From the NCBI GenBank assembly GCA_046331095.1, contig JAXLRM010000008.1:69074-133073 (forward strand): a stretch of DNA of 64,000 nt. Direction: 5' to 3'. Within the stretch, counting starts at the first letter, position 1. Each line of letters starts with the position of its first letter. The position numbers were made by a program, and so were the translations under genes. Under the pieces are notes generated by a model. That model had not been told where the DNA came from. It worked only from the letters and a program-made list of their open reading frames with translations, and ran no database searches. Of this stretch, positions 28,314-58,497 are shown one piece after another. Source of the stretch: Acidimicrobiia bacterium. Its GTDB lineage: Bacteria; Actinomycetota; Acidimicrobiia; UBA2766.

Positions 28314-28426
28314 CGACGTGGGGACGTGAAACGGGCTGTGAACCCACCTCACGTCCCCACGTCGAACCGGACAACCCACGTGGGGACGTGAAACGGGCTG
28401 TGAACCCACCTCACGTCCCCACGTCG
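28314..28426. repeat. REP-like palindromic element array, locus 1: two 49-bp hairpin units separated by a 13-bp spacer (period 62 bp)
   Basis: Each unit is GACGTGGGGACGTGA-N19-TCACGTCCCCACGTC (15-bp perfect stem). The spacer is aaccggacaaccc. It lies in the divergent region between the MCP gene and the phosphatase gene. Confidence 0.9.
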
Positions 28427-28454
28427 AGAGCGGGCTTGGCTACGGTCTGCTCCG

Positions 28455-29108
28455 ATGCACCTGATCGCTGTCCGCCACGGGGAGTCGACCTGGAACGCGG
28501 TAGGCCGGTGGCAGGGCCAAGCCGACCCGGGGCTGTCGGCGCTCGGCCGGCTCCAAGCGTCTGCCCTCGGCGCCCGACTCGCCGTGACGACAGTCGACGC
28601 GGTGGTGTCGAGCGATCTCACCAGAGCGGCCGAGACCGCTCGTGCGGTTGCCGAGCCGCACGGACTCGACGTGGTCCTGCGGCCCGACCTACGCGAGCGT
28701 GACGTGGGTGAGTGGACCGGGCTCACAAGGTCCGAGATCGTCGAGCGCCACCCGGATCAGTGGGCCGCGTACTGCCGCCATCTCGACCCCCCCCTGGGTG
28801 GCGGCGAGACCACTCGCGACCTGCACGCGAGGATCGGTGCCGCGCTCGACGCGATTCTCGACGAGGACCCCGGTGCCGGGAGTGACGCGGTCGTGGTCGT
28901 CGTCGGACACGGCGGCACCGTACGGGCGATCGCCTACTCCGCCCTCGGCCTCAGGCCCGAACCCGGACGGCCGATGGCCCTGTTGGCGCCGGGCAACACC
29001 GCCATCGCCGAGATCGGTTACGACAGCCGCGGCTTGCGTCTGCGCAGCTACAACGACACGGCGCACCTCTACGGCGTCGGCATGGAGGAAACGGCGCTGG
29101 ACGCCTGA
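28455..29108 (+). CDS. Histidine phosphatase family protein (phosphoglycerate mutase-like)
   Basis: LIAVRHGESTWN catalytic motif, 217 aa. Confidence 0.8.
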   Translation: MHLIAVRHGESTWNAVGRWQGQADPGLSALGRLQASALGARLAVTTVDAVVSSDLTRAAETARAVAEPHGLDVVLRPDLRERDVGEWTGLTRSEIVERHPDQWAAYCRHLDPPLGGGETTRDLHARIGAALDAILDEDPGAGSDAVVVVVGHGGTVRAIAYSALGLRPEPGRPMALLAPGNTAIAEIGYDSRGLRLRSYNDTAHLYGVGMEETALDA

Positions 29109-29265
29109 TCGTCGTGAGCCCTGCCCTTGGGCAGCAGTCACCGTGAGATGCAAGGGAACCGTCCCGGGAGGGTTGCCGATCACGGTGGACTGCGCTATGT
29201 TCCGATCCCGACAAAAGGGATATTCGGTCAGGTTGGACCGATCGTAGGCCGGACTGGGATGGGAC

Positions 29266-29496
29266 ATGAGCTTCTACCCCGTCCCCTGCGCCAACGGGAC
29301 CGCAGACATCGTGGTCGGCAAGTTCGGGACCACGGCCTCGGGCATCCTGAAGGTCGGCACCCTGACGTTCACCGCTGCGAACGCCGGCAAGGCCAACGTG
29401 AAGTTCTCGTCGCAATCTGCAGCCGTCAACCCGGGCACCAGCACCGACATCATCGGGTCCACAGCCGGGGGTGTCTATACGGTCGTCCTTGCCTGA
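29266..29496 (+). CDS. Small hypothetical protein (76 aa), possibly a remnant of a beta-rich secreted domain
   Basis: Codon usage is genome-like (high GC3) and an RBS-like GGATGGGA lies upstream. It sits in a locally lower-GC intergenic island (29110-29500). Confidence 0.4.
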   Translation: MSFYPVPCANGTADIVVGKFGTTASGILKVGTLTFTAANAGKANVKFSSQSAAVNPGTSTDIIGSTAGGVYTVVLA

Positions 29497-29542
29497 TCTT
29501 CGGGCGAAGGGCGGGCGGTAGCCGTTGCGGGTGCCTGGACGA

Positions 29543-31096
<1,554 letters not shown>

Positions 31097-31103
31097 GGCC
31101 GCG

Positions 31104-32261
31104 TCAACCCATCCCGACGCCCTGGGCGCGCTGGAGCGACTTGCCTTCGGTCTGCAGCGACGGTGCGATCATGACCTCGGCCTTCTGGAACTCCTTGACG
31201 TTCTGATAGCCGCACGTGGCCATCGACGTGCGCAGGCCCCCGAAGAGGTTGAGGCGGCCGTCGTTCTCGTGCGCCGGTCCGACGAGGATCTCCTGGAGAG
31301 TGCCTTGGGGTCCGACCTGCACGCGGGTGCCACGTGGCAGGTCGGGATGGAAGGTCGCCATACCCCAGTGGTAGCCGAGCCCGGGTGCCTTGACCGACCC
31401 GGCCAGGGGCGATCCGATCATGACGGCGTCGGCTCCGCACGCGATCGCCTTGGCGATGTCGCCGCCGCTGCGCATCCCACCGTCGGCGATGACGTGGACG
31501 TAACGGCCGGTCTCGTCGAGGTGGCGCATGCGGGCGCCTGCCGCGTCCGCGAGGGCGGTCGCCTGCGGTACCCCGATACCGAGCACCCCACGGGTCGTGC
31601 AGGCCTGTCCGGGACCGACGCCGACCAGGACCCCGACAGCGCCCGTGCGCATCAGGTGAAGTGCCGTCGAGTACGAGGCGCATCCTCCCACGATGACGGG
31701 CAGATCGTAGGTCCTGATGAACTCCTTGAGGTTGAGCGGGTCGGTGCGCGTGCTCACGTGCTCCGCCGAGACGACAGTGCCCTGGATCACGAGGATGTCG
31801 AGACCGGCGGCGAGCACGTCGGCGGCATACCGTTGCGTGCGCTGTGGCGTGAGCGAAGCGGCAGCGACGACGCCGGCTTCCTTGATCTCGCCGATGCGAC
31901 GCGCGACGAGCTCGTCTTTCATCGGCTCCTCGTAGATCTCCTGCATGCGCCGCGTGGCCTTCTCGGCGGGCAGTTCGGCGATCTCGGCGTAGACCGAGTT
32001 GGGATCCTCGTAACGGGTCCAGAGGCCCTCGAGGTTGAGGACGCCGAGGCCACCGAGGCGGCCGATCTCGATCGCGGCCTCCGGTGACATGGCGCCGTCC
32101 ATGGCAGCGCCGAGCATGGGGAGACCGAACGTGAAGGCGTCGATCTGCCACGAGATGTCGACATCCTCGGGATCGCGCGTGCGCCTGCTCGGGACTATCG
32201 CGATGTCGTCGAGCCCGTACGCCCGGCGTGCGCTCTTGCCGATGCCGATCTCGATGTCCAC
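31104..32261 (-). CDS. guaB3: IMP dehydrogenase-family protein lacking the CBS subdomain (GuaB3-like)
   Basis: IMPDH/GMP reductase TIM barrel ([34 protein letters not shown]), 385 aa with no CBS pair. It lies immediately upstream of guaA, as in mycobacteria. Confidence 0.85.
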
Positions 32262-32388
32262 TCGGCCACTCCTCCGCTCGCCCGCTTTCGGTTCACTGTA
32301 CCGAAGACCGCGGCCGTCCCCGAAGGCACCCCCGAGTCCTCCAGGTCAGCGCGGCAGTCGGCCCCGACGGAGGGTTCCCGGCACAGGC

Positions 32389-33039
32389 TCAGCCGGGAGG
32401 CACACCCTGGCCGGCATTCTGCAGCAACGTGGCGAGATCGCCGTCGACGATCATGACCATCATCTGGGACCTGTTGTCGGTCGCCTGGGTCGGGAACGCC
32501 ATCAGCGTCTTGCCGTCCTTCTGCATGATGATCCCTCCGTCGGGCAGGGACGCGCCCGACATGCCGAGGAGAGGCGACTCGGTCCAGCCCTGTGCGAGTA
32601 GATCGCTCTTGTACTTGGCGCTCGCGTCGGCGGGGTTGCCGGAAACCTCCATCACGAGGGCCTTGCCGTTCTGGCCGTCGAAGCCGGGCACCCCCTGCGC
32701 CGCGGAGAACACGTTCGTCGCCCCGTCGGGCACGGGCACGTCGGAGGGCCAGTCCGCGGGAACACCCTGGGTGAATCCCGGGATGTCGGCAACGTCACCG
32801 GGCACGTCGCCGGCACTCGCCTGGTCGTCCTGTGAATCGGTGACCTGGGGGTCGTGACCGTCAGGCGGCACCGGCGCCGTCGGGTCGGTCTCGGTCGGAT
32901 CCGACGCCTCCTGGCGCGACCTGTCCTTGTCCGCCTTGAGGCCGAGGTCGCTCGAGCACGCGGCAAGACCGAGCACGGCGGCGACCACGAGCGCGAGTAG
33001 CGCGAGCAGGCGGGGTGTTGTCGATCGACTCTGCTTCAA
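32389..33039 (-). CDS. Putative lipoprotein
   Basis: Signal peptide with lipobox LAACSS and an acidic/Pro-rich linker. Confidence 0.6.
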   Translation of the reverse strand: MKQSRSTTPRLLALLALVVAAVLGLAACSSDLGLKADKDRSRQEASDPTETDPTAPVPPDGHDPQVTDSQDDQASAGDVPGDVADIPGFTQGVPADWPSDVPVPDGATNVFSAAQGVPGFDGQNGKALVMEVSGNPADASAKYKSDLLAQGWTESPLLGMSGASLPDGGIIMQKDGKTLMAFPTQATDNRSQMMVMIVDGDLATLLQNAGQGVPPG

Positions 33040-33265
33040 CGGTATGGGCCTCGCGGTCGAGTACGAAACGCCCGGTACCCGAATCGGGTTCCGGAGGTAC
33101 TTCTGGGGTGGTTGGGAACCCCAGCCTAGGTATGCCCCACGCGGTCAGGACCGTACGGATGCCGGGTGAGAACTCGCTGAGAACCCTCTGGCGCTCGCCA
33201 CCGACTCGGTGACACCACGGCGGACCGCACGCCCGTCCACGTCCCGCGGCCGCCCCGCCACGGCA

Positions 33266-33879
33266 TCAGGGCTCGAACAGGCGGCGGAGAAGACCGTTCA
33301 GGATGCGCGCGGTCAGACCCCAGATGGTCTCGTCCTCGATCTCGAAGAAGTGCACTTCCCACTCGGGACGAACCCAGGTCTCGGAGTGGTACGCGCGGGG
33401 GTCCACCAGATCTGCGACGGGCACGCGCAGGACCGACTCGATCTCCTCGGGTTGGGCCACCCACTCGCGGCCCGTGGCTACCCAGCCGACCACGGGCGTG
33501 ACCGCGAAGGCCGTCGCGACCGTCGACACGCGCTCGAGTTCGCCGAGGACGGTGACGTCCTCGCGGGCCAGACCGACCTCCTCTTCTGCCTCCCGTAGCG
33601 CTGTCGCCACGGGATCGGGGTCGCCGGTGTCGCAGATCCCGCCGGGGAACGCGATCTCGCCGGCGTGCGACGGTGCGGTCATACCGCGCTTCACGAGGAT
33701 CAACTCCACGCCGGTGGGGCCGTCGAGGAAGGGCACCAGGACCGCGGCTTCGCGCAGGTTCGGCACCTGGATCACCTGGTCGGGACGCCCAAGCGCAACT
33801 GCATCTGCCACCGCTGTTCGCGTGACGGCGCGCGCGGGGTCAGCGAGGCCCGCCCAGGCTGCCGGCGGCCCTGCACCCA
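33266..33879 (-). CDS. Nudix hydrolase, CoA pyrophosphatase-like (NudL family)
   Basis: Nudix box GEIAFPGGICDTGDPDPVATALREAEEEVGL. The start is ambiguous (GTG at 33879 or 33810) because the track ORF overlaps the IMPase gene. Confidence 0.65.
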
Positions 33880-33926
33880 CCGACGCCGGCCTTGGGACGT
33901 GTTGGCGGCCACCGCGTGCCACCGCC

Positions 33927-34769
33927 TCAGTCCTCGGCGCCGGTCTGCAGCCGGTCCAGCAGGTCCTCGTGCAGCTCGGCCGTGGCCGCGGCGACCAAGG
34001 GGACGCGCAAGCCGAGATCGGCGCGCAGGGGCACAGGATCGCCGTTGACATCGGTGACGACTCCACCTCCGGCCTCCACCATGATGGCCCCTGCCGCGTA
34101 GTCGACGACGCGTTCGCCGAAGGGCAGCTCCGGATCCGTGTTCACGTTGACGTACGCGTCGAGGCCGCCGGTGGCGACGAGAGCGAGGTCGAGCGCGGCG
34201 GAACCGAGGACGCGGGGCAGGCGGCACGCCGCGAAGACCTGCCGGGCCCGCTCGAGCGCACACGGATCGGCGGGACGCTGGAGGGCGACGGCGGCGTCTC
34301 CGATCCGTGACACATCGCTCGTACCGGCCCTGAGCCCCCCACGGCTCACACCGAGACCGGCCCAGCCGAACATGTCCTCACCGGTGGCGGCGTTGCGGAC
34401 CAGGCCCCCCACGGCGGTGCCGTCGATGAGGACCCCGATCGACACGGCCCAGTACGGGATGCCTGCGAGGACGTTGTTCGTCCCGTCGACCGGGTCCACG
34501 ACGAGGAGGATCCCCGCTCCGGGTCCGTCACCCCGGCCCTCGACGACACCCGCTTCTTCGGAGCACAGCGTCGCCGAGGGCAGCTCTTCGGCGAGGTACT
34601 CCAGCAGGGCGGCCTCGGCCGCCGCGTCGGCCAGTGCGGTCGTGGTGCCGTCCGCTCCCAAGCCCACTTCGTCGGCCCAGCGTGAGCGGTCCGTCGACTC
34701 GAGCGCGTCGAGAGCGCGGTCCGCGGCTGTGGAGAGCGTGACCGGCCAGTCGACACCGGCGACGACCAT
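33927..34769 (-). CDS. Inositol monophosphatase family protein (SuhB/CysQ-like)
   Basis: IMPase motifs (VVDPVDGTNN, WDxAAG-like region), 280 aa. ATG at 34769. Confidence 0.8.
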   Translation of the reverse strand: MVVAGVDWPVTLSTAADRALDALESTDRSRWADEVGLGADGTTTALADAAAEAALLEYLAEELPSATLCSEEAGVVEGRGDGPGAGILLVVDPVDGTNNVLAGIPYWAVSIGVLIDGTAVGGLVRNAATGEDMFGWAGLGVSRGGLRAGTSDVSRIGDAAVALQRPADPCALERARQVFAACRLPRVLGSAALDLALVATGGLDAYVNVNTDPELPFGERVVDYAAGAIMVEAGGGVVTDVNGDPVPLRADLGLRVPLVAAATAELHEDLLDRLQTGAED

Positions 34770-34786
34770 CGACTCCACGGGCGCGC

Positions 34787-35188
34787 TCAGGCCGAGAAGG
34801 TGACGATGGTGATGGTGCCCAGGAGGAAGAGCCCGCCTACGACGGTGAACAACAAGGCCTTGACCCCGACCCGCAACCGCCGGTTGCGGATGTAGTCCTC
34901 CGAGATGGCCCGCACGCCGATGGCGCCGTGGCTCAACGCCAGCGTGAGCAAGGCCCAGTCGAAGAAGCGCCACAGCGGGTTCGACCATCTCGTCTGCACG
35001 AACAGGTAGTCGGTCTCGACGACGTCGTTGACGATGTGGGTGATCGCGAAGTGCGCCAGGGCCAAGAAGACGAGGATCAGACCCGAGATGCGCATGTAGT
35101 ACCACATGCGCACCTCGGAGCGGTTCGCGACCCGCGTCTGGGCCCCGCCTTCGGTTCCGGTCTCGGTGCTGTCCAGTGTCTGTGCCAC
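34787..35188 (-). CDS. sdhD: Succinate dehydrogenase hydrophobic membrane anchor subunit (SdhD-like)
   Basis: MRISGLILVFLALAHFAITHIV... resembles actinobacterial SdhD, with three TM helices. GTG start at 35188. Confidence 0.7.
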   Translation of the reverse strand: MAQTLDSTETGTEGGAQTRVANRSEVRMWYYMRISGLILVFLALAHFAITHIVNDVVETDYLFVQTRWSNPLWRFFDWALLTLALSHGAIGVRAISEDYIRNRRLRVGVKALLFTVVGGLFLLGTITIVTFSA

Positions 35189-35208
35189 TGATTCCCTCGG
35201 ATCAGGCG

Positions 35209-35592
35209 TCAGAAGACCGGCTTGTGCGTGAAGAACGGCAGCACGATCACGATGCCGCCCGCGACGGTGACGACCGCGGTGATCGCGGCCACGACCCAGG
35301 CAAGCTGCTTCTGGCGCTCCACTGCGGCGTCGAAGAAGTCGACTGCGATGATCCTGAGCCCGTTGAGCGCGTGGAAGACGAGCGCGCCCAGGAGCCCCAC
35401 CTCGAACAGGCGCAGGAGGATGTTGCCGTAGACGGCGTGCACGGTGTCGTAGAGGTGTTCGCTGATCCCCGCGAGCGTGACGTCGACGACGTGGAGGAGC
35501 AGGAACATGAGTACGAGGAAGCCGGTCACCCGGTGCGCCGTGAAGGCCCACATGCCCGTCTTGCCCTTGTAGATCGTGCCTCTGCTCAGCAC
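35209..35592 (-). CDS. sdhC: Succinate dehydrogenase cytochrome b subunit (SdhC-like)
   Basis: MWAFTAHRVTGFLVLMFLLLHV (heme-ligand His region), 127 aa. Confidence 0.75.
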   Translation of the reverse strand: MLSRGTIYKGKTGMWAFTAHRVTGFLVLMFLLLHVVDVTLAGISEHLYDTVHAVYGNILLRLFEVGLLGALVFHALNGLRIIAVDFFDAAVERQKQLAWVVAAITAVVTVAGGIVIVLPFFTHKPVF

Positions 35593-35617
35593 CGTGGCCT
35601 CCGCTGCCCGGAGATGG

Positions 35618-35772
35618 TCAATACCGGCGGGGACGCTTGCGCGCCTGCCAGCGCTCTGTGACGCCCCACATGGACGTGGAGAAGACGAATGCAGCCACCG
35701 CGAAGATGACCAGCGCGACGATGGCCAGCACGATCAGGAACAGCACCTGGGACGTGGTGATCGTCTGCATGC
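35618..35772 (-). CDS. Possible small single-TM membrane protein (51 aa), below the ORF-track length cutoff
   Basis: Hand translation of the minus strand gives MQTITTSQVLFLIVLAIVALVIFAVAAFVFSTSMWGVTERWQARKRPRRY. A GGAGG lies 11 nt upstream. It sits directly upstream of sdhC. Confidence 0.3.
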
Positions 35773-35833
35773 CGGCACGGACCTCCGCTCGGGCGTCCTC
35801 CCGGTTGCATCCTCCGGAAGCGCGGTCGCAATC

Positions 35834-38562
35834 CTAGAAGTCGCCGCGCGGGCACGCGGAATCGGCGTGCTCGTCCTCGGACGGCCGAGCGACCCACTCA
35901 ATCAAGCACTTGAAGAGCTGCTCCGCCGTGTAGGGCTTCGTGAGGACGCCGTCCATGCCGGCTTCGATGCACTGCGCGTGCACGTCGGACGTGGCGGATG
36001 CCGTCAGGGCGACGATCGGCAGGTCGTCGCCCGCAGGCCCGGCGCGCAGGGCACGAGAGGCCTCGAAGCCGTCCATGACAGGCATGTGGCAGTCCATGAA
36101 CACGAGGTCGAACTCGGCGGCGGCGACCGCCGTGACTGCGGCGGCGCCATCGGGGACGAGCACCGCTTCGCAGCCGAGCCGCTCGAGCATGCCTGCGGCA
36201 ACCCGCCGGTTCACGGGATTGTCCTCGGCGACCAGGATCCGCATCCCCGCCAAGCTGCCCGCTTGGTCGGCCACCAGCGCGGGCTCGCGCGGCGCCAACC
36301 CGGGTGCCTCCTCCATGACGTGGCGGGTGAAGAACACCCCACCGGGAAGGGGCCCCACGACGGAGGCGACGAGGTCGTCGGTCGCCCCGGTCAGGTACGC
36401 GTCGAAACCGGCATTGCGAGCCGCGGCGGCGTCACCCCGATAGCCCGCCGGCGGCCCTACGAGGACCAACCGGACGTCGGGACAACGATCGCGGACGCGA
36501 CGAGCGAGAGCGCGCGCCTCTTCGGCGATGTCCGCGTCGACGACGGCGACGAGCAATGCGTCGGCGCCGTCGGGCCCGAGGAGGGGCTCTGCGGCGACGA
36601 GGCTCTCGGCGTGTTCGACGAGGACGTGGCCTTCCTCGAGGATCCGACGGCAGCGCGCGATGGTCGCGGTGTCGTTGCCGCAGAGGACTGCGCGCACGGG
36701 AACCCGCCGCGAAGAAGCATCCTCTGGGGTTGCCGCGACCTCGAACGGCACCTCGGCCCAGAACGTCGATCCGGCACCGACCTCGCTCTCGGCACCGACA
36801 CGTCCCCCCATGAGCTCGACGAGCTGACGCGAGATCGCAAGTCCCAGCCCGGTCCCCCCGAAGCGTCGCGTCGTCGACGCGTCCGCCTGGGTGAACTCCT
36901 CGAAGAGGTGGGCGACTCGTTCACTCGCGATCCCGATCCCGCTGTCGACGACCTCGAATCGGATCAGGACCGTGTCCGCCCCGGCGCGAGTCGCCGTTGC
37001 GCGGAGCTCGAGTTGACCCTCCTCGGTGAACTTGAGAGCGTTGGCGCAGAAGTTGTTGAGGACCTGGCGCACCCGACTCGGATCGCCCAGCACGCGTAGC
37101 CCGGCCACGGCTTCGACGTCGAGGACGAAGCCGAGCCCCTTGGACACCGCCTGCACCTCGATGATCCGCGCCGTGTCGCCGAGCAACCTGTGCGGGTCGA
37201 ACGCGATCCGTTCGAGCTCGATCTTGCCGGCCTCGATCTTCGAGACGTCGAGCACGTCGTTGATGACCGACAGCAGCGCCGAGGACGCGTCCCGGGCTGT
37301 CGCGGCGCACTCGCGGGCACTGGCATCGAGACTCTCGTCCAACAAGAGCTCGAGCATCCCGATGACACCGTTGAGGGGGGTCCTGATCTCGTGGCTCATG
37401 TTGGCTAGGAACGTGGACTTCGCGCTGCTCGCGGCTTCGGCGTCGTCGCGCGCCTCCTCGAGAGCGGCGCGGTCGTGCTCCCTCGAGATCTCCGTGCCAA
37501 CCCACTCGGCCATCAGGCGCAACACGTCCTTGTCCGCCGGCCCGAAGGGCGCCGCGAGGGCCGACGTGCTCTGGAAGCTGAGGGTCCCGAAGACCTCGCC
37601 GTTGACCACGACCCTGACGCCCAGGTACGCCTCGGGACCACCGTCACGGTGGGCCGCGTGCGCTGCCCATTGGGAGGCGGATGCGTCGTGGAACGCGAGC
37701 GGCGCCGACGAAGCGATCGTGGTCCGGTCGAACGTCTCGGCCAGCGGCCGCGTCGACCCCTGGAGCGGACCACGGTTGCCGGTGACCACCTCGACGATCT
37801 CGAGGTCGCTGCCCCGTAGGCGAGCCAGGATCCCCGTCTCGGTCCCGAACCGGCGACATCCCATCGCCAGCAGCTCCGACAACCGTCCCCCGAGGTCACC
37901 TTCCGACGTCGACAGGGAATACAGACCCCTGACGGTGCTCTCGTTGCGGCGGAGCTGACGCTCGATGGCCTTGGTCTCGCTGACGTCGCGGAACACGATC
38001 GCGGCGCCGGTCGGGACACCGTCCTCCACGATCGGGCTCATCTGGAAACTGACCTCGACGATGGAGCCGTCCTCGTGGACGAAACGTGCGTCGTCGGCAC
38101 GTGCGACCTGCGAGCCGCGCAGGACCTCGGCGAGCATCTCGTAGGCGGCATCCTGCTCGGTCGGCCCGAGGACGCCGAAACCGAGCAGCTCGAGAGCAGG
38201 GCGTCCGAGTGCCTCGCTCTGGAGCCTCCCCAACAGCCGCGCCCCTTCGGGATTCATCGAGACGACGGTGCCCTCGGCGTCGAGCACCAACAGTCCCTCG
38301 GCCAGGGACGTGATGATCGTCCGCAGCTTGTCGCGCTCTGCCGCCAAGCGGCTGGCCGACGAACGGCGCAGATCCTCGTACAGCGAGGTCATCTCCTCGG
38401 AGGAGATCTGCATGGACCGCTCCATCGTGTAGCGGTCCTGATCGAACTGGGTGTACGCACGGTCGAGCCGCCCGAGCAGAGCGCGCCACGCCTCGATCGA
38501 GGGCGCTTCGTCCGGACCGAGTCCGTGCTTCCGGAGCTGCCTCCTGAGCAGCGGGTGTGTCA
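35834..38562 (-). CDS. Hybrid sensor histidine kinase (PAS-GAF-HisKA-HATPase-REC-REC)
   Basis: HisKA ([22 protein letters not shown]), HATPase ([18 protein letters not shown]), and two receiver domains (the last one [15 protein letters not shown]...[13 protein letters not shown]). ATG at about 38562. The upstream part of the track ORF overlaps the FIST gene and was rejected. Confidence 0.85.
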
Positions 38563-38616
38563 TGCGCCGGCCGTCCTCCGAACGGGGTGGGCCACGATGG
38601 ACGGTCCGGGGCGCCG

Positions 38617-39759: not shown

Positions 39760-39869
39760 GTCAGCATGCCTCCGCACACAGGGCCCCGTAACGGCACGCG
39801 GGACCGTCTTGTGTGTATCGACACGTACGGCGCCTGGTTGAGAACGCCTTGGAGCGGCCCTGATGCGAG

Positions 39870-40172
39870 TCAGCCGAGGTCGACGACCTCGAACGCGAGG
39901 ACCTCCGAGCCGGTGCCGACCGGGCCCCCTCCGGCCGACTGGCCATGACCGCGCCCGAACGCGCTGCTCGACATCCACCCCTCGAAGGACTCCCTGGAAT
40001 CCCAGTGCGTCACGACGAAGTAGGCATCCCTGCCGTCCGCCGGACGAAGCAGCTCGAAACCCTCGAATCCCGGCTGCTCGTCGACCTCGCCGGCGCGGGC
40101 TGCGAAGCGCTTCTCGAGTTCCGGTCCGGCCTCGCCTGGCACGGTGATCGCGTTGACGACTACGTAGCTCAT
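39870..40172 (-). CDS. Antibiotic-biosynthesis-monooxygenase (ABM) domain protein
   Basis: MSYVVVNAITVPGEAGPELEKRFAAR...FVVTHWDSRESFEGWMSSSAF is a typical about 100-aa ferredoxin-like ABM fold. Confidence 0.7.
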   Translation of the reverse strand: MSYVVVNAITVPGEAGPELEKRFAARAGEVDEQPGFEGFELLRPADGRDAYFVVTHWDSRESFEGWMSSSAFGRGHGQSAGGGPVGTGSEVLAFEVVDLG

Positions 40173-44052: not shown

Positions 44053-44083
44053 CCAAACCTAGGGTCGAGCGCTGCGCGGAACC

Positions 44084-44220
44084 GACGTGGGGACGCAAAA
44101 CGGGTCGTGAACCCCTCTCACGTCCCCACGTCCGAACCACCCCCCGACGTGGGGACGCAAAACGGGTCGTGAACCCCTCTCACGTCCCCACGTCGTTCCG
44201 ACCCCTCGACGTGGGGACGC
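44084..44220. repeat. REP-like palindromic element array, locus 2: two full units plus a third half-site, 62-bp period
   Basis: GACGTGGGGACGC-aaaacgggtcgtgaacccctctca-CGTCCCCACGTC occurs twice at 44084 and 44146. A truncated left half-site lies at 44208. The 13-bp spacers are constant. Confidence 0.9.
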
Positions 44221-50703: not shown

Positions 50704-50818
50704 GGCAGCCATCCTGCGCGCCATTCGCGACACGGACCTTTCCCAGTCCTTTCGATTCTCGAAACTGTCGGGCCGGACCTGCGTAGGTTGCGGGCCCCTT
50801 CCCTACCGTGTCCTCCGG

Positions 50819-52147
50819 ATGACCACCGCCACCTCTCCGAGCGCACGTCGCGGACGAGCGGCGACGCCCGACCTCGGCGGTCGGGACCGCGTCGACGCGG
50901 TCGCCCTCGCCCTTTGGGCGGTCGTGGTCGCCGCCGCTGTCGTCTGGGGCCGGAGTCTGGGCGCCGAGCGGGTCCTGGTCGACTGGCCTCCCTTGCACGC
51001 GCTCTGGGAGCCGGGCATCGGGCTGCCCGTCCTGCTCCCGGTGGGTGTCGCGACCCTGGTGGTAGGAACTCGGCGGCTCCAGGACCGGGTCGCCTGGCGA
51101 TGGCTGCTGGCGCTCGCGCTGGTCGCCGCGTTCGCCTGGCTGGTCGCCGCGAACATGTGGCGCGGCGGTGGGCTCGATCGCCTGGCCGCCCCGCTCGGGA
51201 GCCCGCAGGACTACCAGGGCGACTTGGCGTCTTTCAGCGGTCCGCTGGACACCCTCGCCCACTACACCGAGCGGCTCCCCCTCCTCGGGACGCACAACCG
51301 CGGCCACCCGCCGGGGCCGCTGATCGCCTTCGAGGTGCTGCGCGCGCTGGGGATCGTAGACCTACGCGCGGTCGCGATCCTGGTGTGCCTCGCGGGCGCG
51401 TCCGTCGTCGTCCCCGTTGCCGCCGTACTGCGCCGCGTCGGGGGCGAGGACCGTGCCAGACGCCTGCTCCCGTTGCTGGTCCTCGCACCGTACGTTCTGT
51501 GGCTCGGGGTCAGCTTCGACTCGGTCTTCTGCGCCGCTGCCGCGTGGACCGCCTTCCTCTGGCTGCACGCGAGTCGGAGCCGCCGGCTGCTCCAGGCCGC
51601 CACGGGCGTGTGCTTCGGCGTGATGCTCATGCTCAGCTACGGGCTCGCCCCGTTCGCGCTCGTGCTGCTGTCGCTACGCCGGGACCGGCGTTCGGTGTGC
51701 TTGGCCGCCGGCGGGGTGGCTGCCGTCCTCGTGGCCGCCTGGGCGGCAGGCTTCGCGTGGCCGGCAGGCTTGGCCGCCACCAATGTGGAGTACCAGGCGA
51801 CGTACCACCTCCAGGGTGGCCGCCCGGGCTGGTACTGGTGGCTCGGCGACCTGGGTGCGCTCGCCATCGCCACCGGGCCCGCGGTGGCCCTGTCGGCCGG
51901 GAGGGCGATCCGCGGCTTGCGCCTGCGGGATCCCGGTATCACCCCCTGGGCGCCCACCCTCGCGGCGGCCGTTGCCGTGGCGTTCATGGTCGTGTCGGGC
52001 CTGACAAAGGCCGAGGTCGAGCGGATCTGGCTCCCGTACATGCCGTGGCTGCTACTTGCGGCGCCGGCAGACCGGCGCGGCATCCTGAGCTCCGTCCAGG
52101 CCTCGTGGACCCTCACGATCAGCGCGCTGGTGCTTCCCTGGTGGTGA
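50819..52147 (+). CDS. Polytopic membrane protein, possibly a GT-C-type glycosyltransferase (DUF2029/mannosyltransferase-like)
   Basis: About 11 TM helices (442 aa). It is divergent from the GT2-rSAM operon, with a 115-bp shared upstream region. The assignment rests on architecture only. Confidence 0.6.
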   Translation: MTTATSPSARRGRAATPDLGGRDRVDAVALALWAVVVAAAVVWGRSLGAERVLVDWPPLHALWEPGIGLPVLLPVGVATLVVGTRRLQDRVAWRWLLALALVAAFAWLVAANMWRGGGLDRLAAPLGSPQDYQGDLASFSGPLDTLAHYTERLPLLGTHNRGHPPGPLIAFEVLRALGIVDLRAVAILVCLAGASVVVPVAAVLRRVGGEDRARRLLPLLVLAPYVLWLGVSFDSVFCAAAAWTAFLWLHASRSRRLLQAATGVCFGVMLMLSYGLAPFALVLLSLRRDRRSVCLAAGGVAAVLVAAWAAGFAWPAGLAATNVEYQATYHLQGGRPGWYWWLGDLGALAIATGPAVALSAGRAIRGLRLRDPGITPWAPTLAAAVAVAFMVVSGLTKAEVERIWLPYMPWLLLAAPADRRGILSSVQASWTLTISALVLPWW

Positions 52148-52176
52148 CCGCGGAGCTGCACCCCCCCGACCCCCCG

Positions 52177-52287
52177 ACGTGGGGACGCAAACCGGGCTGT
52201 GAACCCCTCTCACGTCCCCACGTCGTTCCGACCCCCCGACGTGGGGACGCAAAACGGGTCGTGAACCCCTCTCACGTCCCCACGTCG
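52177..52287. repeat. REP-like palindromic element array, locus 3: two units, 62-bp period
   Basis: GACGTGGGGACGC...CGTCCCCACGTC at 52177 and 52239. It lies in convergent intergenic space (membrane protein versus rimI). Confidence 0.9.
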
Positions 52288-52289
52288 GT

Positions 52290-52862
52290 TCAGGGGGGCG
52301 GGATGTCGGGCTCGACACGGGTGGTTCCCCCGAGCGTGTCGACGATCCTCAGGAGACGCGCTCTGTACTCGGGCGTGTCGATCCCGTCGGCGGTCATGAT
52401 CACGGCGTCGATGCGCTCGCCGTCCACCGTGTAATAGCCCTTGCGCACCCCGACCGGCATGTAGCCGAACCCGGCGTACAGACGCTGCGCGGCGCGGTTG
52501 TCGGCACGTACCTCGAGGGTCGCGAGCGTGGCCCCGCGTTCGAGTGCGGCCGCCGTCAACTGCAACAGCAGACGCTTGGCGAGACCACGGCGCTGCCATG
52601 CCGGGTCGACGGCGACGGTGGCCACGTGGGCCTGGTCGCCCGCCATGAGCACACCCCCGTAGCCGCGTACGGTGCCGCCCACCGACGCCACGTAGTAGGC
52701 ACGCGTCGACAGCTTCGAGAGCTCGGACTCGAACAGCGACCTGCTCCACGGCGCCGGGTAGGCGGCCTGTTCGATCGCCAGCACGGCGTCGAGATGAGCC
52801 GCCCGCATGGGCGAGATCACCACGTCGAGGCGGTCGTGGTTCGCGTTGTCGGCGTCAGGCAC
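52290..52862 (-). CDS. rimI: Ribosomal-protein-alanine N-acetyltransferase
   Basis: GNAT fold (VAVDPAWQRRGLAKRLL) in the tsaB-rimI-tsaD context. Confidence 0.8.
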   Translation of the reverse strand: MPDADNANHDRLDVVISPMRAAHLDAVLAIEQAAYPAPWSRSLFESELSKLSTRAYYVASVGGTVRGYGGVLMAGDQAHVATVAVDPAWQRRGLAKRLLLQLTAAALERGATLATLEVRADNRAAQRLYAGFGYMPVGVRKGYYTVDGERIDAVIMTADGIDTPEYRARLLRIVDTLGGTTRVEPDIPPP

Positions 52863-53559
52863 TGCTGCGACGCGCCTCCCACTTGATCTCGGCGTCGGAT
52901 CGGCGCAAGTAGAGAGGTGCGACGTCGTGAGCCCTCACGAAGTCCTCGCGGTCGAAGCGCCCCGTCGCGACCGCGACCGCAGCCGCCGCCGTCGGGTGCG
53001 CGGTCAGCACGTCGCCCACCTCGACGTGGTCGACCTTGGCGAGCACGTCTCTGTACTCGACGGCGCCGGTCCCGACCACGAGGGTCTCACCGCCCTCGGC
53101 GACGATGTCGGCGGCGAGCGCCTCGGGCGTGCAGACCGCGTAGTCCCCGATGCGCTCGACCCCGCCGGGGACAGGCACGTAGCGTGCCCAGAACACCTCG
53201 CCGCGCCTCGCGTCGACGGCGGCGACCACGGACCGGCCCGAGTGCCGAACGGCCATCGCCACGAGGTCGAGTCCGCTGAGGGCGACAACGGGCAGGTCGA
53301 GCGACACGGCCACCGCCTTGGCGGTCGCGATTCCGACACGCAAGCCGCTGAAGAGCCCCGGCCCGTGATCGACCACGACACCCGTGATCTCCGACGCCGT
53401 GCAGCCCGCCGATCTCAGGCAGAACTCGATCGCGGGCGCCACGAACTCGGCGTGGGCATGCGGTCGCGCCAGCCGAGCCTCGGCGAGGACGCCCGCTCGT
53501 GTCCCCAGCCCGACCGAGCTCCGAGACGTCGCGGTGCAGATCGCGAGCACCAAGGTCAC
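52855..53559 (-). CDS. tsaB: tRNA threonylcarbamoyladenosine biosynthesis protein TsaB
   Basis: VTLVLAICTATSRSSVGL... YeaZ family. GTG start forms a GTGA overlap with the tsaE stop. Confidence 0.85.
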   Translation of the reverse strand: MTLVLAICTATSRSSVGLGTRAGVLAEARLARPHAHAEFVAPAIEFCLRSAGCTASEITGVVVDHGPGLFSGLRVGIATAKAVAVSLDLPVVALSGLDLVAMAVRHSGRSVVAAVDARRGEVFWARYVPVPGGVERIGDYAVCTPEALAADIVAEGGETLVVGTGAVEYRDVLAKVDHVEVGDVLTAHPTAAAAVAVATGRFDREDFVRAHDVAPLYLRRSDAEIKWEARRSSA

Positions 53560-54062
53560 CTGGTCGCCTCCAGTCCTGCGAGCCGACCGGCCCAGCGCGT
53601 GCCCACGGGCCGCAGCACGAAACGACGCTCGTCCGCCACGTCCGGCGGACCGTAGTCGATGACGATCTCGAGGCGGTCGGGCCCGAAGACCGCTGCCACG
53701 GCAGCACCCCACTCGACGAGGAGCACGCGGTCGGGGCCGCCGAGGTCGTCGAGCCCGAGGTCCTCGACCTCGGCGACGCGTTCGAGCCGGTACAGGTCGA
53801 CGTGGGTCACGCCGAGGCCGCCCGCGCCCTCGTACTCGTGGACCAGGGTGTAGGTGGGGCTCGTGACCTCGGTGGTGACCCCCAACGCCCACGCCAGCTC
53901 GCGCACGAACGTGGTCTTGCCGGCGCCGAGCGGACCGTCGAGGAGGACGACGTCGCCGGGGCCCAGCAGCGCCGCCACCCTCCGTGCGAGTTCGGCCGTC
54001 TCCGCGACGGTGCGGACCTCGACGCTCAGCGCCGGCTCAGAAGAGGCCGAGTTGTCCGGCAT
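53556..54062 (-). CDS. tsaE: tRNA threonylcarbamoyladenosine biosynthesis ATPase TsaE
   Basis: P-loop LLDGPLGAGKTTFVR, YjeE family. Confidence 0.8.
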   Translation of the reverse strand: MPDNSASSEPALSVEVRTVAETAELARRVAALLGPGDVVLLDGPLGAGKTTFVRELAWALGVTTEVTSPTYTLVHEYEGAGGLGVTHVDLYRLERVAEVEDLGLDDLGGPDRVLLVEWGAAVAAVFGPDRLEIVIDYGPPDVADERRFVLRPVGTRWAGRLAGLEATR

Positions 54063-54747
54063 CGTCCGCAGCCGTGTCCGAGGTGGCGACCACCGTTTCG
54101 CGCAGGTCGATCTCCGCGTCGACACGCTCGGGTGCATCCACACCCGTGGCGGCTCCCGCGGAGGCGGCCCTGTTCTTCGCCCTGTACGTGCGCGCCTTGT
54201 CGATCGTCGCCCGGATCACCGCGAAGTCCTCGCGGGCGTCCTGGAGCTTGGACGCGCCACCGCGCAGCACCGCGGCCGGATGCAGCGTGGGGATCAGAGT
54301 GGCGTCGTTGCGCCACCGGAACCGCCGGCCGCGCACACGTGTCACCCCCACCTGACGGTCGAGCAGGTACCGCGTCGCGAATGCGCCCAGGCTCACGACC
54401 ACGAGCGGGTCGAGGAGCTCGAGTTGGCGGTCCAGGTACGGCGTGCACGACGCGATCTCGCCCGGTTCGGGGTCGCGGTTGCCCGGCGGGCGGCACTTGA
54501 GGATGTTGCAGATGTAGACCTGCTCACGCTCGATGCCCACGTCGGCGCAGAGGCGGTTCAACAGGTTGCCCGCCGCGCCCACGAAGGGGACCCCCTGCTC
54601 GTCCTCGTTGCGGCCGGGTGCCTCGCCGACGAAGACGAGGTCGGCTGTCTCGCTCCCCGTGCCGAACACGACCGTGTTGCGCGTCTCGCACAGGACGCAC
54701 GCGGTGCACGCCTCTGCCTCGGCGCCGAGCTCCTCGAGTGCGGTCAC
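54037..54747 (-). CDS. udg: Family-4 uracil-DNA glycosylase (Fe-S cluster type)
   Basis: CTACVLCETR...GEAPGRNEDEQGVPFVGAAG...ICNILKCRPPGNRDP are family-4 UDG motifs. Confidence 0.85.
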   Translation of the reverse strand: MTALEELGAEAEACTACVLCETRNTVVFGTGSETADLVFVGEAPGRNEDEQGVPFVGAAGNLLNRLCADVGIEREQVYICNILKCRPPGNRDPEPGEIASCTPYLDRQLELLDPLVVVSLGAFATRYLLDRQVGVTRVRGRRFRWRNDATLIPTLHPAAVLRGGASKLQDAREDFAVIRATIDKARTYRAKNRAASAGAATGVDAPERVDAEIDLRETVVATSDTAADDAGQLGLF

Positions 54748-55664
54748 GGCTGCCCCTCCTCCGCCGACTCCGCCCCGGTTCTAGTAGCGGTCACCGCGTG
54801 GCGGGTGGCAGCGGCGACGATGCCGGCGACCGCGGCCACGGCCGCATCCACGATCCCGGGATCCGCCGGCGCGGGCCCGGTCCCGGTCGCGAGCACGAAG
54901 ACGGTGTCGCCGTCGTATCGGGTGTGGGAAGGGCGCAGGCACCGGGCGAAGCCGTCGTGGGCGGCCTGAGCGAGGACGTACGCCTCCGCCGGGGCGAACA
55001 CGGCGTCGACGGTCACGACCGCGACCGTCGTGTTCGTGCGCGTGATCGGGGCCACCGGCTCGGTCCCCGTGGCGGCACGGCTCCCGGCGACGACCTCACC
55101 GGATTCGCCGACGACGTCGCCGAGGGCATTGGCGACCACGATCGCGCCCAGCGCGACCCCGGCAACCTCCTCGCACTCGGCACCGACGCCGCCGGGTACC
55201 GCCCATTCCGCTCCGTGGACCTTGCCCACGGTCGCGCCCGCCCCGGCGCCGACACGACCCCACGGCGGTTCCGCGGTCGCCACGTCGAGGGCCAGCGCTC
55301 CCGCCTCCGCCGGCGGCCACGTGCCCCCCGATGCGACGAGGTCGAACACGCAAGCGGCGGGCACGATCGGGACCGGACCCCCGGGGGTCGGCACGCCGCG
55401 GCCGCGCCGGACCATCGCCTCGGCGACCGTGTTCGCCGACCCGAGGCCGAGCGCTGACCCGCCCGAGAGCACGACCGCGTCGACTCGTTCGACGAGCCGC
55501 CACGGAGCGAGGGCGTCCGTCTCACGTGTCGCCGGGGCGTTGCCACGCACGTCGACGCCCGCGATCGCGGGCGCGTCGGGCACGACCACGGTCGTGCCGG
55601 TCGTCCCCCCCGGAGCCGTCCAGTGCCCGACACGCACGCCGGGCCCGAGCCGGCCAGCGGTCAA
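54744..55664 (-). CDS. P1/S58-family peptidase (DmpA/L-aminopeptidase-like)
   Basis: GVRVGHWTAPGGTTGTTVVVPD...TTVAVVTVDA...DGDTVFVLATG. Proposed TTG start overlaps the alr stop. The long upstream extension of the track ORF is an alternative frame of alr and was rejected. Confidence 0.6.
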   Translation of the reverse strand: MTAGRLGPGVRVGHWTAPGGTTGTTVVVPDAPAIAGVDVRGNAPATRETDALAPWRLVERVDAVVLSGGSALGLGSANTVAEAMVRRGRGVPTPGGPVPIVPAACVFDLVASGGTWPPAEAGALALDVATAEPPWGRVGAGAGATVGKVHGAEWAVPGGVGAECEEVAGVALGAIVVANALGDVVGESGEVVAGSRAATGTEPVAPITRTNTTVAVVTVDAVFAPAEAYVLAQAAHDGFARCLRPSHTRYDGDTVFVLATGTGPAPADPGIVDAAVAAVAGIVAAATRHAVTATRTGAESAEEGQP

Positions 55665-56809
55665 CGTCCGCTCCGCACGTGGACCCGGGGGACGCGGGCG
55701 CCGATGCCGCAGGTGACCTCGTATCCGATCGTCCCGAGCTTGGCGGCCCACTCCTCGGCGCGGATCTCGGCTTCGCCCTGGCGCCCGATGAGGACGACCT
55801 CCGTGCCGACCGGCATCTCGTCGTCGCCGAGGTCGACCATGAACTGGTCCATGGTGATCGTGCCCGCTATCGGGCGGCGGTGCCCGCCGACGAGGACCTC
55901 GGCCCTGCCCGAGAGCCCGCGGCGCACGCCGTCGTGGTAGCCGAGAGGAACGGTCCCGACCCACGACGGCCGGTCGAGCTCGTAGCGGTGGCCGTAGCTG
56001 ATCCGCTCGCCCGGATCGAGCCTGCGCACGTGCGCCAGCTCCGAGACCAGCGTCAGCGCCGGTACGAGCCTCCCGGTTCCTGCCAAGCCGGGTGCGGGGG
56101 CGATTCCGTAGAGGGCGATGCCGCAGCGCACCATGTCGTATCGGTACCGCTCCGCGTCGACGAGGGTGGCAGCCGAGTTGGCCGCGTGGAGGACTCCCGG
56201 ATCGACGCCGGCCGCCGCGATGTCCGCGACGACCGCGTCGAACAGCTTCGCCTGCGTCTCGGTGCAGTCGAGGTCGGGTTCGTCGGCGACCGCGAAGTGG
56301 GTCCACGTCCCTCCGAGGCGCAGCCCGGCCGCGGCCTCGATGCGGCGTGCGAGGCCGGGGGCGGCATCGGGTTGGCAACCCACGCGGTTCATCCCGGTGT
56401 TGACCTTCAGGTGGACTGCGACGTCGCGCCCGGCTGCGGAAGCTGCCCGCGCCAGCGCGTCGACGCCGGCCTCGGTGTACACGGTGGCCGTCGCCCCGGC
56501 GTCGACGAGAGCGGCCTCCGCTCCGGGGGGTGCCTGCGACAGGAGCAGCACCGGAGCGCCGATGCCGGCACCACGCAGGTCGAGGACCTCCTCGACGAGG
56601 GCGACTCCGAGCATCGCGGCGCCCGCCTCCAACGCCGCGGACGCGACCGGCACGGCACCGTGGCCGTAGCCGTCGGCCTTCACGACGGCGCAGAGGGCGG
56701 CCGGCGCCGCGATACGGCACAGGTAGCCGGTGTTGGCGGCGATGGCATCGAGGTCGACGAGCGCGCGGGACGGTCGGAACGACACCGGCGGGAGGGGTCC
56801 GGCGGTCAC
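55661..56809 (-). CDS. alr: Alanine racemase
   Basis: PLP-binding AVVKADGYGHG and the C-terminal catalytic Tyr region. GTG start overlaps the nnr stop. Confidence 0.9.
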   Translation of the reverse strand: MTAGPLPPVSFRPSRALVDLDAIAANTGYLCRIAAPAALCAVVKADGYGHGAVPVASAALEAGAAMLGVALVEEVLDLRGAGIGAPVLLLSQAPPGAEAALVDAGATATVYTEAGVDALARAASAAGRDVAVHLKVNTGMNRVGCQPDAAPGLARRIEAAAGLRLGGTWTHFAVADEPDLDCTETQAKLFDAVVADIAAAGVDPGVLHAANSAATLVDAERYRYDMVRCGIALYGIAPAPGLAGTGRLVPALTLVSELAHVRRLDPGERISYGHRYELDRPSWVGTVPLGYHDGVRRGLSGRAEVLVGGHRRPIAGTITMDQFMVDLGDDEMPVGTEVVLIGRQGEAEIRAEEWAAKLGTIGYEVTCGIGARVPRVHVRSGR

Positions 56810-58302
56810 GTGCGCGCCTCGGCCTCGGCCGCAGGGATCTGCGCGGCGATGTCGCCCGCCACCGGGTGGCGATCCTCGGAGCCGGCCAGGGCTCCCGCGC
56901 GGCCGTGTACGCACGCGGCTGCGACGGCGGCTTCGTGGGGATCGGCACCGCGGGCGATGTAGGCGGCGACGATCCCGGTGAGCACGTCGCCGCTGCCCGC
57001 CGTGGCGAGCTCGGGACCTCCGCTTCGGCACACGACCGGCACACGACCCGGCGTCGCCACGACGGTTGCCGGACCCTTGAGCAGCACGGTGCAGCCCCAA
57101 TCCGTGGCGGCGTCGACCACAGCGGTGACCCGATGCGATCCTGCGTCGAGGTCGCCGCCGAGGCGGGTGAACTCGCCCTCGTGTGGCGTCAGGACCGTCG
57201 GTGCCTGCCGTGCCCTCAGAAGCGCCGGTTTGGCGTTGTTGAGGCCGTCGGCATCGAGCACGAGCGGCCCGGGGACGGTGGCGAGCGCGTCGGCCACGAA
57301 AGCACCCGTCCCGGGTCCGCGGCCGAGTCCGGGGCCGACGGCCACCGCTCCGAAGCGTCCGAGCGCGAAGCGCCTCGCCACAAGGTCCATGGCGGATGCC
57401 GCGACGGCGCCGTCGGCCTCGGGGAGTGGTGCCGTCATCAACTCCCGTGCGGAGGCCGCGACTGTGGGCTGCACGCACGCGGGCACACCTGCGACGACGA
57501 GGCCGGCACCGGCGCCGAACGCCGCCGCCGCCACGAGCGCCGGCGCGCCGGCCATGCCGTCCGATCCGCCGAGGACGAGGACCGCGCCCGCGGCCCACTT
57601 GTGGGCGTCGACGGCGCGCACGGGCACGGACCCGATCGCCGTCGCGGGGTCGGCGAGGGCGGCCGCCTCCTCGCCCAGGGTGATGCCGACATGGGCGACC
57701 TCCACGGTCCCGCACAGGCGCGCACCCGGGCCGAGGACATGGCCGAACTTGAGCGCCTCGATCGCGACGGTGAGGTCGGCCGCGAACGCATCGCCGACGA
57801 CGGCGCCGGTCGCCCCGTCGACGCCCGAGGGGATGTCGACGGCGAGAACACGGGCACCCGAGGCGTTGACGGCTGCTGCCGCGGCGGCGGGATCCCCACC
57901 GAGGCCGCCCCGGAACCCGGTCCCGAAGACCGCGTCGATGACGACGTCGGCGGGTCCGAGCCGGCCACCCCAGGCGTCGACGGGCACGGGTCTGGTCCTG
58001 AGCCGGTCGAGGTTCGTGCGTGCGTCGCCGGAGACTCCGTCCAAGTCGCCGACGAGGACACATCGCACGGCGGCACCGGCGTCGTACAGGCGCCGGGCGA
58101 CCACCCAGCCGTCGCCGCCGTTGTTGCCGGGCCCGGCGAGGACGACGAAGCGGCGTCCGCCCACCCCGCCGGCGAGGCGCACCGCTGCTCGGGTGCACGC
58201 GCTCCCGGCGCGCTCCATCAGCTCGAGCCCGGGCGTCCCCGCCGAGATCGTGGCGCGGTCGGCCGCCGCCATCTGCGCTGGGGTCACTACGGGCAGGTGC
58301 AC
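56806..58302 (-). CDS. nnr: Bifunctional NAD(P)H-hydrate repair enzyme Nnr (epimerase/dehydratase)
   Basis: YjeF-N (VLAGPGNNGGDGWVVAR) plus a YjeF-C carbohydrate-kinase-like domain, 498 aa. Confidence 0.9.
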   Translation of the reverse strand: MHLPVVTPAQMAAADRATISAGTPGLELMERAGSACTRAAVRLAGGVGGRRFVVLAGPGNNGGDGWVVARRLYDAGAAVRCVLVGDLDGVSGDARTNLDRLRTRPVPVDAWGGRLGPADVVIDAVFGTGFRGGLGGDPAAAAAAVNASGARVLAVDIPSGVDGATGAVVGDAFAADLTVAIEALKFGHVLGPGARLCGTVEVAHVGITLGEEAAALADPATAIGSVPVRAVDAHKWAAGAVLVLGGSDGMAGAPALVAAAAFGAGAGLVVAGVPACVQPTVAASARELMTAPLPEADGAVAASAMDLVARRFALGRFGAVAVGPGLGRGPGTGAFVADALATVPGPLVLDADGLNNAKPALLRARQAPTVLTPHEGEFTRLGGDLDAGSHRVTAVVDAATDWGCTVLLKGPATVVATPGRVPVVCRSGGPELATAGSGDVLTGIVAAYIARGADPHEAAVAAACVHGRAGALAGSEDRHPVAGDIAAQIPAAEAEART

Positions 58303-58346
58303 GCCGCGATCGTATTCCTTCCGACGAGGCGCTCGGCGCTACCGGC

Positions 58347-58497
58347 TCCCCACGTCGACGCGACCAACCCACGTGGCGACCAACCCACGTGGGGACGCAA
58401 AGCGGGTCCACAACCCCTCTCACGTCCCCACGTCGATGCGACCAACCCACGTGGGGACGCAAAGCGGGTCCACAACCCCTCTCACGTCCCCACGTCG
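58347..58497. repeat. REP-like palindromic element array, locus 4: a degenerate partial unit followed by two full units, 62-bp period
   Basis: Full units lie at 58387-58435 and 58449-58497 (ACGTGGGGACGC-aaagcgggtccacaacccctctca-CGTCCCCACGTCG). Upstream half-sites are ccccacgtcg and acgtggcgac. Spacers atgcgaccaaccc/acgcgaccaaccc are constant. Confidence 0.9.

Follow-up and report, generated by a model that had tools for sequence, protein, structure and literature searches.

Head-to-tail arrays of a 62-nucleotide hairpin module in an uncultured Acidimicrobiia lineage: a probable REP-like intergenic repeat family

RESULTS

A 64,000-nucleotide (nt) stretch of Acidimicrobiia bacterium DNA (GenBank assembly GCA_046331095.1, contig JAXLRM010000008.1, positions 69,074 to 133,073), here called the window, has a GC content of 68-75% and carries four arrays of a palindromic element that is repeated with a period of 62 bp. 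An initial annotation had described two to three hairpin copies per locus. The 62-bp period proved to be exact, and each locus contained two full units, the extra copies at the second and fourth loci being partial. In all four arrays, the minus strand is the better-folding strand. Array 1 (28303-28427, minus strand) consists of two 62-nt modules with palindromes at 28314-28364 and 28376-28426. The two modules of array 2 (44082-44220, minus strand), with palindromes at 44083-44133 and 44145-44195, are accompanied by a truncated third unit of which the left arm alone is present (44207-44220). Array 3 (52166-52287, minus strand) again comprises two modules, with palindromes at 52175-52225 and 52237-52287. 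In array 4 (58345-58497, minus strand), partial arms and a 16-bp sub-repeat (58345-58384) come before the two modules (palindromes at 58385-58435 and 58447-58497). The solo half-site that had been noted at 17835-17848 upstream of pcrA was also recovered: CGACGTGGGGACGTG (17834-17848, strand unassigned) lies in an intergenic position 64 nt upstream of a UvrD/PcrA helicase gene and is probably a remnant.

The gene context was derived from gene calls and Pfam hits of the European Nucleotide Archive (ENA) metagenome contig ERZ27258557:k141_1640636 and from scans of the window, and it agreed with the four settings initially assigned (divergent, co-directional, convergent, and gene 3' end). Array 1 is flanked by the 5' ends of divergent MCP (minus strand) and His_Phos_1 (plus strand) genes. 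Array 2 lies between co-directional genes: the stop codon of a histidine-kinase gene (44306) is 85 nt upstream of it, and the tsaD-groES-groEL genes begin 32 nt downstream with the start of tsaD (44052). Array 3 fills the convergent gap between the stop codon of a gene for a 442-amino-acid protein (52147) and that of a rimI-like GNAT gene (52290), the latter ending the glmS-nnr-alr-...-tsaE-tsaB-rimI run. The last arm of array 4 contains the stop codon (58482-58484, minus strand) of a gene for a 103-amino-acid small protein downstream of glmS, and the start of nnr/yjeF is located nearby at 58302. Open reading frames (ORFs) that run through arrays yield artefactual PTWGR/RPHV peptides, as the initial annotation had recognized.

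The 62-nt module is composed of a 49-51-bp palindrome (CG-ACGTGGGGACG, a 25-nt centre, and CGTCCCCACGT-CG) and an asymmetric C-rich leader of ~11-13 nt, which reads G-rich on the opposite strand. Full units of the form ACGTGGGGACG-N25-CGTCCCCACGT occur twice at each of the four window loci, spaced by exactly 62 bp (starts of the 11-nt arm at 28316/28378, 44085/44147, 52177/52239, and 58387/58449). Tandem Repeats Finder assigned each of the four loci a period of 62 and counted 2.0-2.2 copies at 93-100% identity. The 12-mer GACGTGGGGACG (at most one mismatch) was found 20 times in the window compared to 2.4 ± 1.5 times in dinucleotide shuffles, and none of 100 shuffles reached 20. Two one-mismatch matches, at 18819 and 19224, sit within coding sequence and look like chance occurrences. 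Even with two mismatches tolerated in each arm, the rest of the 64 kb yielded no decayed paired copies.

Across 127 units, only 4 substitutions were counted in the 11-nt arms, a figure for which the search pattern was required of one unit per locus and neighbouring units were free to vary. The centre is exactly 25 nt long throughout and is represented by more than 100 different sequences. A loop of 19-25 nt and a constant 13-bp spacer had been proposed; in fact, the 11-mers are always 25 nt apart, and the remaining 15 nt of the period correspond to 13 bp if the two extra paired CG are counted. These 15 nt have conserved ends and read CC...(A)CCCCCG in one orientation. Units are near-identical within an array, and between arrays the centre and linker differ while the arms stay constant, which upholds the earlier view of a conserved stem with variable loop and spacer. 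All units of an array are arranged head-to-tail, with the same polarity of centre and leader.

Folding revealed an asymmetry between the strands. On one strand, G·U (G·T) pairing closes the centre and yields an almost perfect hairpin with a triloop and 22-23 pairs, whereas the opposite strand has A·C mismatches at the G·U positions. The loop with a small internal hairpin that had been described is therefore, on the minus strand of the window, almost fully paired through G·U. The register of the inner stem differs from copy to copy. Single units had mean folding energies of -31 (C strand) and -34 (G strand) kcal/mol, and a unit from the window, folded as RNA, reached -41.6 kcal/mol on its better strand versus -31.2 kcal/mol on the other. 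For a two-unit array, RNA folds of -103.7 kcal/mol (minus strand, z = -7.4) and -80.1 kcal/mol (plus strand, z = -5.0) were obtained. DNA folds gave z values of -4.5 to -7.2, with a strand difference of 1-3 kcal/mol. No Rfam family matched the arrays at the gathering threshold, where sub-threshold generic hairpin matches alone were returned; the glmS ribozyme was the sole Rfam family above threshold within the window.

The G-rich linker is on the better-folding strand in 26 of 31 arrays, and in that orientation ~11 nt of linker always follow the last hairpin. The repeated entity is therefore the 62-nt module, a hairpin with a one-sided leader, and since the leader is part of the module, the constant period is explained without a ruler mechanism. 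Arrays with a 72-nt period represent a variant with a leader that is 10 nt longer. We also considered that the spacers might be duplicated target DNA. This was rejected, as flank and spacer resemble each other on one side only: with the array read in its better-folding orientation, the similarity covers ~11 nt at the 3' side.

An exact-pattern scan was conducted over 185,579 species genomes. At least 65 stretches were among the matches listed, of which at least 45 came from the metagenome-assembled genome (MAG) Acidimicrobiia bacterium SSF4 and at least 6 from the MAG Actinomycetes bacterium SOY_34_metabat_58. The presence of the same element in so many SSF4 stretches answers the genome-wide search suggested initially: the window copies are not local duplications. 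SSF4 contains at least 48 arrays with at least 120 units. Among the matches listed, its arrays comprise one unit in 7 cases, two in 21, three in 9, and four in 11, and the interval between units is 62 in 66 of 76 instances (72 in six, 61 in two, and 63 in two). The SOY_34 elements have a diverged centre and irregular periods of 62-84 bp. SSF4 is a related genome to which the window does not belong. One gene region alone matches between the window and SSF4 (88% nucleotide identity), and orthologous proteins are 62-96% identical. Neither the Joint Genome Institute (JGI) metagenome contigs, in which Firmicute-type hairpins alone turned up, nor the IMG/VR viral contigs contained members of the N25 family, which is thus narrowly distributed.

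The remaining matches of the scan (Firmicutes, Amycolatopsis, and others) have other gap lengths and were rejected as unrelated hairpins. Among them, a conserved hairpin of the form GCACGTGGGGACG-N15/16-CGTCCCCACGTGC recurs across three species of Amycolatopsis, one genome of which holds two loci (L005, L017, L018, and L040); its gap length is unlike that of the 62-nt module family. Some SSF4 and SOY_34 arrays are trailed by short degenerate single-arm repeats, e.g., CGTCCGCACGT every 20 nt (L008, 1407-1450; L002, 649-680; L060, 5959-6000), which may be products of slippage or decay.

All arrays located in the window and at the SSF4 loci examined are intergenic or at ORF termini, and they lie near gene 3' ends, in line with the intergenic bias that had been proposed for testing. 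With genes around the arrays called by a crude method based on GC content at third codon positions (GC3), ~38 of 52 arrays had a stop codon no more than 45 nt away from their first or last arm, usually at a distance of 2-20 nt (median, ~11 nt) and occasionally inside the arm. Both neighbours could be called for 33 arrays: 13 were between convergent genes, 16 between unidirectional genes, and 4 between divergent genes. Compared to a naive expectation of 25%, 50%, and 25%, respectively, the convergent setting is enriched and the divergent one depleted. A link between array orientation and replication was likewise explored. The better-folding strand appeared to follow local GC skew (33 versus 13), but this was an artefact of the arrays themselves, as masking them left 18 versus 17.

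The evolutionary behaviour of the module could be followed at an orthologous site. The gene for the 442-amino-acid protein, 76% identical between the window and SSF4, directly precedes an array in both; array 3 of the window has two units and its SSF4 counterpart (L037) has three. The arms are identical, and the centres are of the GGGU...ACCC type in the window versus the CGCGC...GCGCG type in SSF4. The four window arrays resemble one another more than they resemble any SSF4 array, and centres are therefore homogenised within genomes. Such concerted evolution speaks for turnover or gene conversion and against passive inheritance. Over 20.8 kb, the ENA contig and the window share 99.94% identity, and the contig encodes identical GroEL and GlmS. 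Arrays 2 and 3 showed no variation between these two assemblies of one population, and array 4 differed by one arm single-nucleotide polymorphism (ACGTGGGGACG versus CCGTGGGGACG; window 58449 versus L086 12173-12183).

One insertion could be delimited. At the SSF4 locus L025, a two-unit array splits a single unit of a 93-bp tandem repeat; the units beside it are undisturbed and so serve as an internal empty-site control. The inserted DNA starts and stops at the palindrome (plus leader). No target-site duplication was found at L025, and no direct repeats were found around single units.

The 93-bp repeat is itself a second intergenic tandem repeat of the window (15037-15302; 2.9 copies, 98% identity), where it occupies a convergent gap before the pcrA-like gene. 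It is kept in SSF4 (L025, 1-480; L024, 800-890), with 62-bp arrays beside or inside it. Its unit pairs CUUCCUCCU with AGGAGGAAG, which are anti-Shine-Dalgarno-like and Shine-Dalgarno-like, respectively, around ~45 nt, and its fold was not significantly more stable than shuffles. A fragment from the start of this family, GAGGCGCTCGGCGCT (58318-58342), directly adjoins array 4, and the same motif follows the array in L025. The two repeat families seem to co-occur.

DISCUSSION

We consider it probable (roughly 0.55) that the arrays constitute a lineage-specific, noncoding repeat family resembling repetitive extragenic palindromic (REP) elements, i.e., hairpins at transcript 3' ends that multiply by local tandem duplication. 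There is good support for arrays growing through tandem duplication of whole 62-nt modules. The hairpins are probably transcribed from the neighbouring gene that reads into them, on either side. As structures at RNA 3' ends, they would serve as terminators or attenuators that work in both directions and need no U-tract, and they would also hold back 3'-to-5' exonucleases. By analogy with known REPs, they would insulate convergent genes and tune the stability of the upstream cistron. The copy number of a locus would change by slipped-strand or unequal tandem duplication of the whole module, a mode of change that would account for an inherited, constant period. For the spread to new sites and the genome-specific homogenisation of the centres, either gene conversion or an activity acting in trans would have to recognise the invariant arms. 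A single-strand transposase of the REP-associated tyrosine transposase (RAYT) type is the obvious candidate.

Several results weigh against this interpretation. The initial annotation had proposed folding and covariation analysis as a check; the very stable hairpins were borne out, but covariation in the inner stem and the full hairpin was no better than in shuffled controls and revealed nothing significant beyond palindromy. The consensus scan for intrinsic terminators detected no U-tract after the full hairpin and reported the inner hairpin with an internal GUUUUG alone, on the minus strand. A start codon lies 29-45 nt downstream of three of the four window arrays, so that these could be absolute terminators only if the downstream genes were leaderless or reached by read-through. 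The arrays showed no strand bias relative to the direction of the adjacent gene (12 sense, 11 antisense), and this random orientation argues against a strictly strand-specific RNA function. No gene family recurs beside the arrays, the one large cluster consisting of ORFs translated through arrays and of ordinary paralogues. The cognate RAYT whose search had been suggested did not materialise: searches of all ORFs of the window and loci with phmmer (Escherichia coli RayT as query) and a hidden Markov model of 60 RayT homologues uncovered no Y1/RAYT transposase in the window, in additional sequence of the contig, or in the ~0.4 Mb surrounding 59 arrays.

The sole RayT match among the loci searched was a Firmicute gene (L033, Virgibacillus). 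Kinship with the Firmicute REPs that share the 11-mer near RayT was considered and rejected, because the overlap (ACGT+GGGGACG) was imposed by the search pattern; the conserved Firmicute core at two further RayT loci is GGGACGGTTCT, which identifies the shared 11-mer as a consequence of that pattern. These hairpins belong to a Bacillota REP family with the core GGGACGGTTCT that flanks RayT (Y1_Tnp) genes in Virgibacillus profundi and Desulfotomaculum (L033, 259-310 and 2958-3007, gene at 2153-2935 on the minus strand; also L010 and L068). In some species, its outer arm coincides with ACGTGGGGACG.

The initial annotation had likened the element to REPs and bacterial interspersed mosaic elements (BIMEs) without recognising the family. 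The likeness holds for the intergenic location, the proximity to 3' ends, and the stable hairpins; the GTAG/CGTC tags and the BIME alternation are absent. Like REPs and BIMEs of Enterobacteria and Pseudomonas, the modules are high-copy extragenic palindromes that lie within ~20 bp of the 3' ends of convergent and unidirectional genes; few are located between divergent genes, some are taken into the termini of ORFs, and some recur in tandem along with DNA from their flanks (PMC3733652). Most convergent REP copies are within 20 bp of both 3' ends (PMC3733652). REPs measure 20-40 bp, with 8-9-bp stems, 4-5-nt loops, and GTAG or CGTC tags (PMC3733652), whereas the palindrome described here spans 49-51 bp with up to 22-23 pairs. 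GTAG REPs carry the tag unpaired; the 62-nt module has a CCCCCG/CC flanking consensus without GTAG, a C-run leader taking the place of the tag. BIMEs alternate in orientation, unlike the strictly head-to-tail modules, and the RAYT genes that are flanked by REPs in known systems have no counterpart beside the 62-bp arrays in the sequence searched. The family acts like a REP, yet it is not a demonstrated member of the REP-RAYT group, from which it differs in tag, size, and BIME organisation.

More specific relatives fit no better. The right arm of the module begins with CGTC, which recalls the CGTC-tagged REPs of alphaproteobacteria (dRS3, RPE-4/6), and these likewise have no known dedicated transposase. 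Their 8-9-bp stems starting with AT pairs, 4-5-nt loops, and CCA tail do not fit the module, and they occur mostly as head-head dimers with a negligible head-tail fraction. REPINs (REP doublets forming hairpins) of Pseudomonas fluorescens and others are similar in that the long hairpin could be read as two inverted half-elements, that genome-specific sequence populations persist at orthologous sites, and that tandem clusters occur. REPINs are defined together with a single-copy RAYT, which was not found for the 62-nt module in the sequence searched, and the halves of the module do not form REP hairpins of their own. Mycobacterial interspersed repetitive units (MIRUs) of Mycobacterium tuberculosis are also actinobacterial, intergenic, head-to-tail repeats of ~50-100 bp that vary in copy number per locus. 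MIRUs have no long perfect palindromes, follow the orientation of their operon, and contain short ORFs in phase; for the 62-nt module, in contrast, the period is not a multiple of 3 and the orientation is random.

Two other explanations account for part of the data. The arrays could be phased double-stranded DNA sites for a lineage-specific nucleoid-associated or topology-related protein, as at E. coli BIMEs, to which IHF or gyrase binds, with the CGT-N4-ACG arms as the recognition sequence and the 62- and 72-bp periods keeping the sites on one helical face. Arms that are sequence-invariant in three genomes while the paired inner stem changes freely imply selection on sequence and not on pairing alone, and a centre and spacer fixed in length and variable in sequence, an alternative period that is 10 bp apart (62 versus 72), and an orientation irrelevant to transcription are all compatible with such sites. 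We nevertheless regard this as rather unlikely, since the centre's consistent G·U polarity indicates a single-stranded form, the stop-codon proximity and the depletion at divergent promoters suit a role at RNA 3' ends better, the SOY_34 relatives have irregular periods, and no candidate protein is known. That the arrays are ordinary factor-independent terminators, an immobile host feature homogenised by gene conversion, would agree with GC-rich hairpins right after stop codons that are commoner between convergent genes and with the occupation of the orthologous site in two species. This is doubtful, as ordinary terminators are not sequence-related and here the same 11-nt arms, around a centre of exactly 25 nt, recur at no fewer than 48 sites; moreover, an array was inserted within a unit of another repeat (L025), arrays also occur in divergent and 5' regions, and termination needs no multiple tandem copies.

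Mobility of a more classical kind could be invoked if the element were a miniature inverted-repeat transposable element (MITE), in other words an insertion sequence that has lost its interior and is moved by a DDE transposase, with the arms as back-to-back terminal inverted repeats. Perfect inverted arms, many dispersed copies, and the one observed insertion speak for it. The lack of target-site duplications at single units and at L025, the absence of an arm-flanked transposase gene from the sampled DNA, and the fixed-period head-to-tail arrays, which are atypical of MITEs, render it very improbable. A CRISPR identity had been dismissed initially, and we concur: within-array spacers are identical, 15 nt separate the 11-mers, and no neighbour gene recurs. 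Palindromic, regularly spaced repeats might still call to mind a CRISPR-like or processed small-RNA array, e.g., one resembling type III antitoxin repeats. Such an array is scarcely credible in view of identical spacers of 13-15 nt (CRISPR spacers are unique and 21-72 nt long), the dozens of loci with just 1-4 units each, the lack of recurrent cas or toxin genes in the vicinity, and no Rfam match above threshold.

Within the REP-like interpretation, the arms stay invariant in sequence while the paired inner stem changes freely, which argues for a sequence-specific recognition factor. A more speculative proposal, which we hold to be improbable on present evidence, is that the arms are the recognition site of a lineage-specific non-RAYT factor that maintains and spreads the module and that the strand asymmetry confers orientation-dependent effects on mRNA. 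A nuclease, a recombinase, or a double-stranded RNA/DNA-binding protein would be candidates for the factor. One strand would present a perfect duplex of ~22 bp, the size of an RNase III-like substrate, and the other a 12-bp stem with an internal loop that would block exonucleases. If true, the family would be a regulatory repeat system of a new type in Actinomycetota, one that depends on orientation and not on a transposase.

The REP-type elements of proteobacteria have been studied thoroughly, but such elements are essentially undescribed in Actinomycetota. A full-text search of the literature returned no match to the motif, and the REP survey contains no such family and lists no actinobacterial one (PMC3733652). 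In this uncultured Acidimicrobiia lineage, a large share of the short intergenic gaps is filled by one hairpin module, and its invariant arms, freely evolving yet homogenised centres of exact length, and lack of a detectable RAYT in the sequence searched raise the question of what recognises the arms. There are practical consequences as well. Gene callers extend ORFs through the arrays, which produces artefactual PTWGR...RPHV ends and wrong starts and stops, and the arrays are likely hazards for assembly and binning. They could be used as strain markers in the manner of variable-number tandem repeats and may provide compact bidirectional terminator/stabiliser parts for high-GC hosts.

Further features of the window were recorded in passing. 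A perfect 14-bp unit, CGGCCCCAACCCGG, is repeated 5.1 times in tandem at 11960-12031, at the 5' end of the ORF at 10723-12033 (minus strand). The glmS ribozyme (Rfam RF00234, 68.6 bits) was located at 60703-60845 (minus strand), upstream of glmS as expected. The longest glmS ORF begins 14 codons too early; the recorded protein begins with MCGIVAY (60631).

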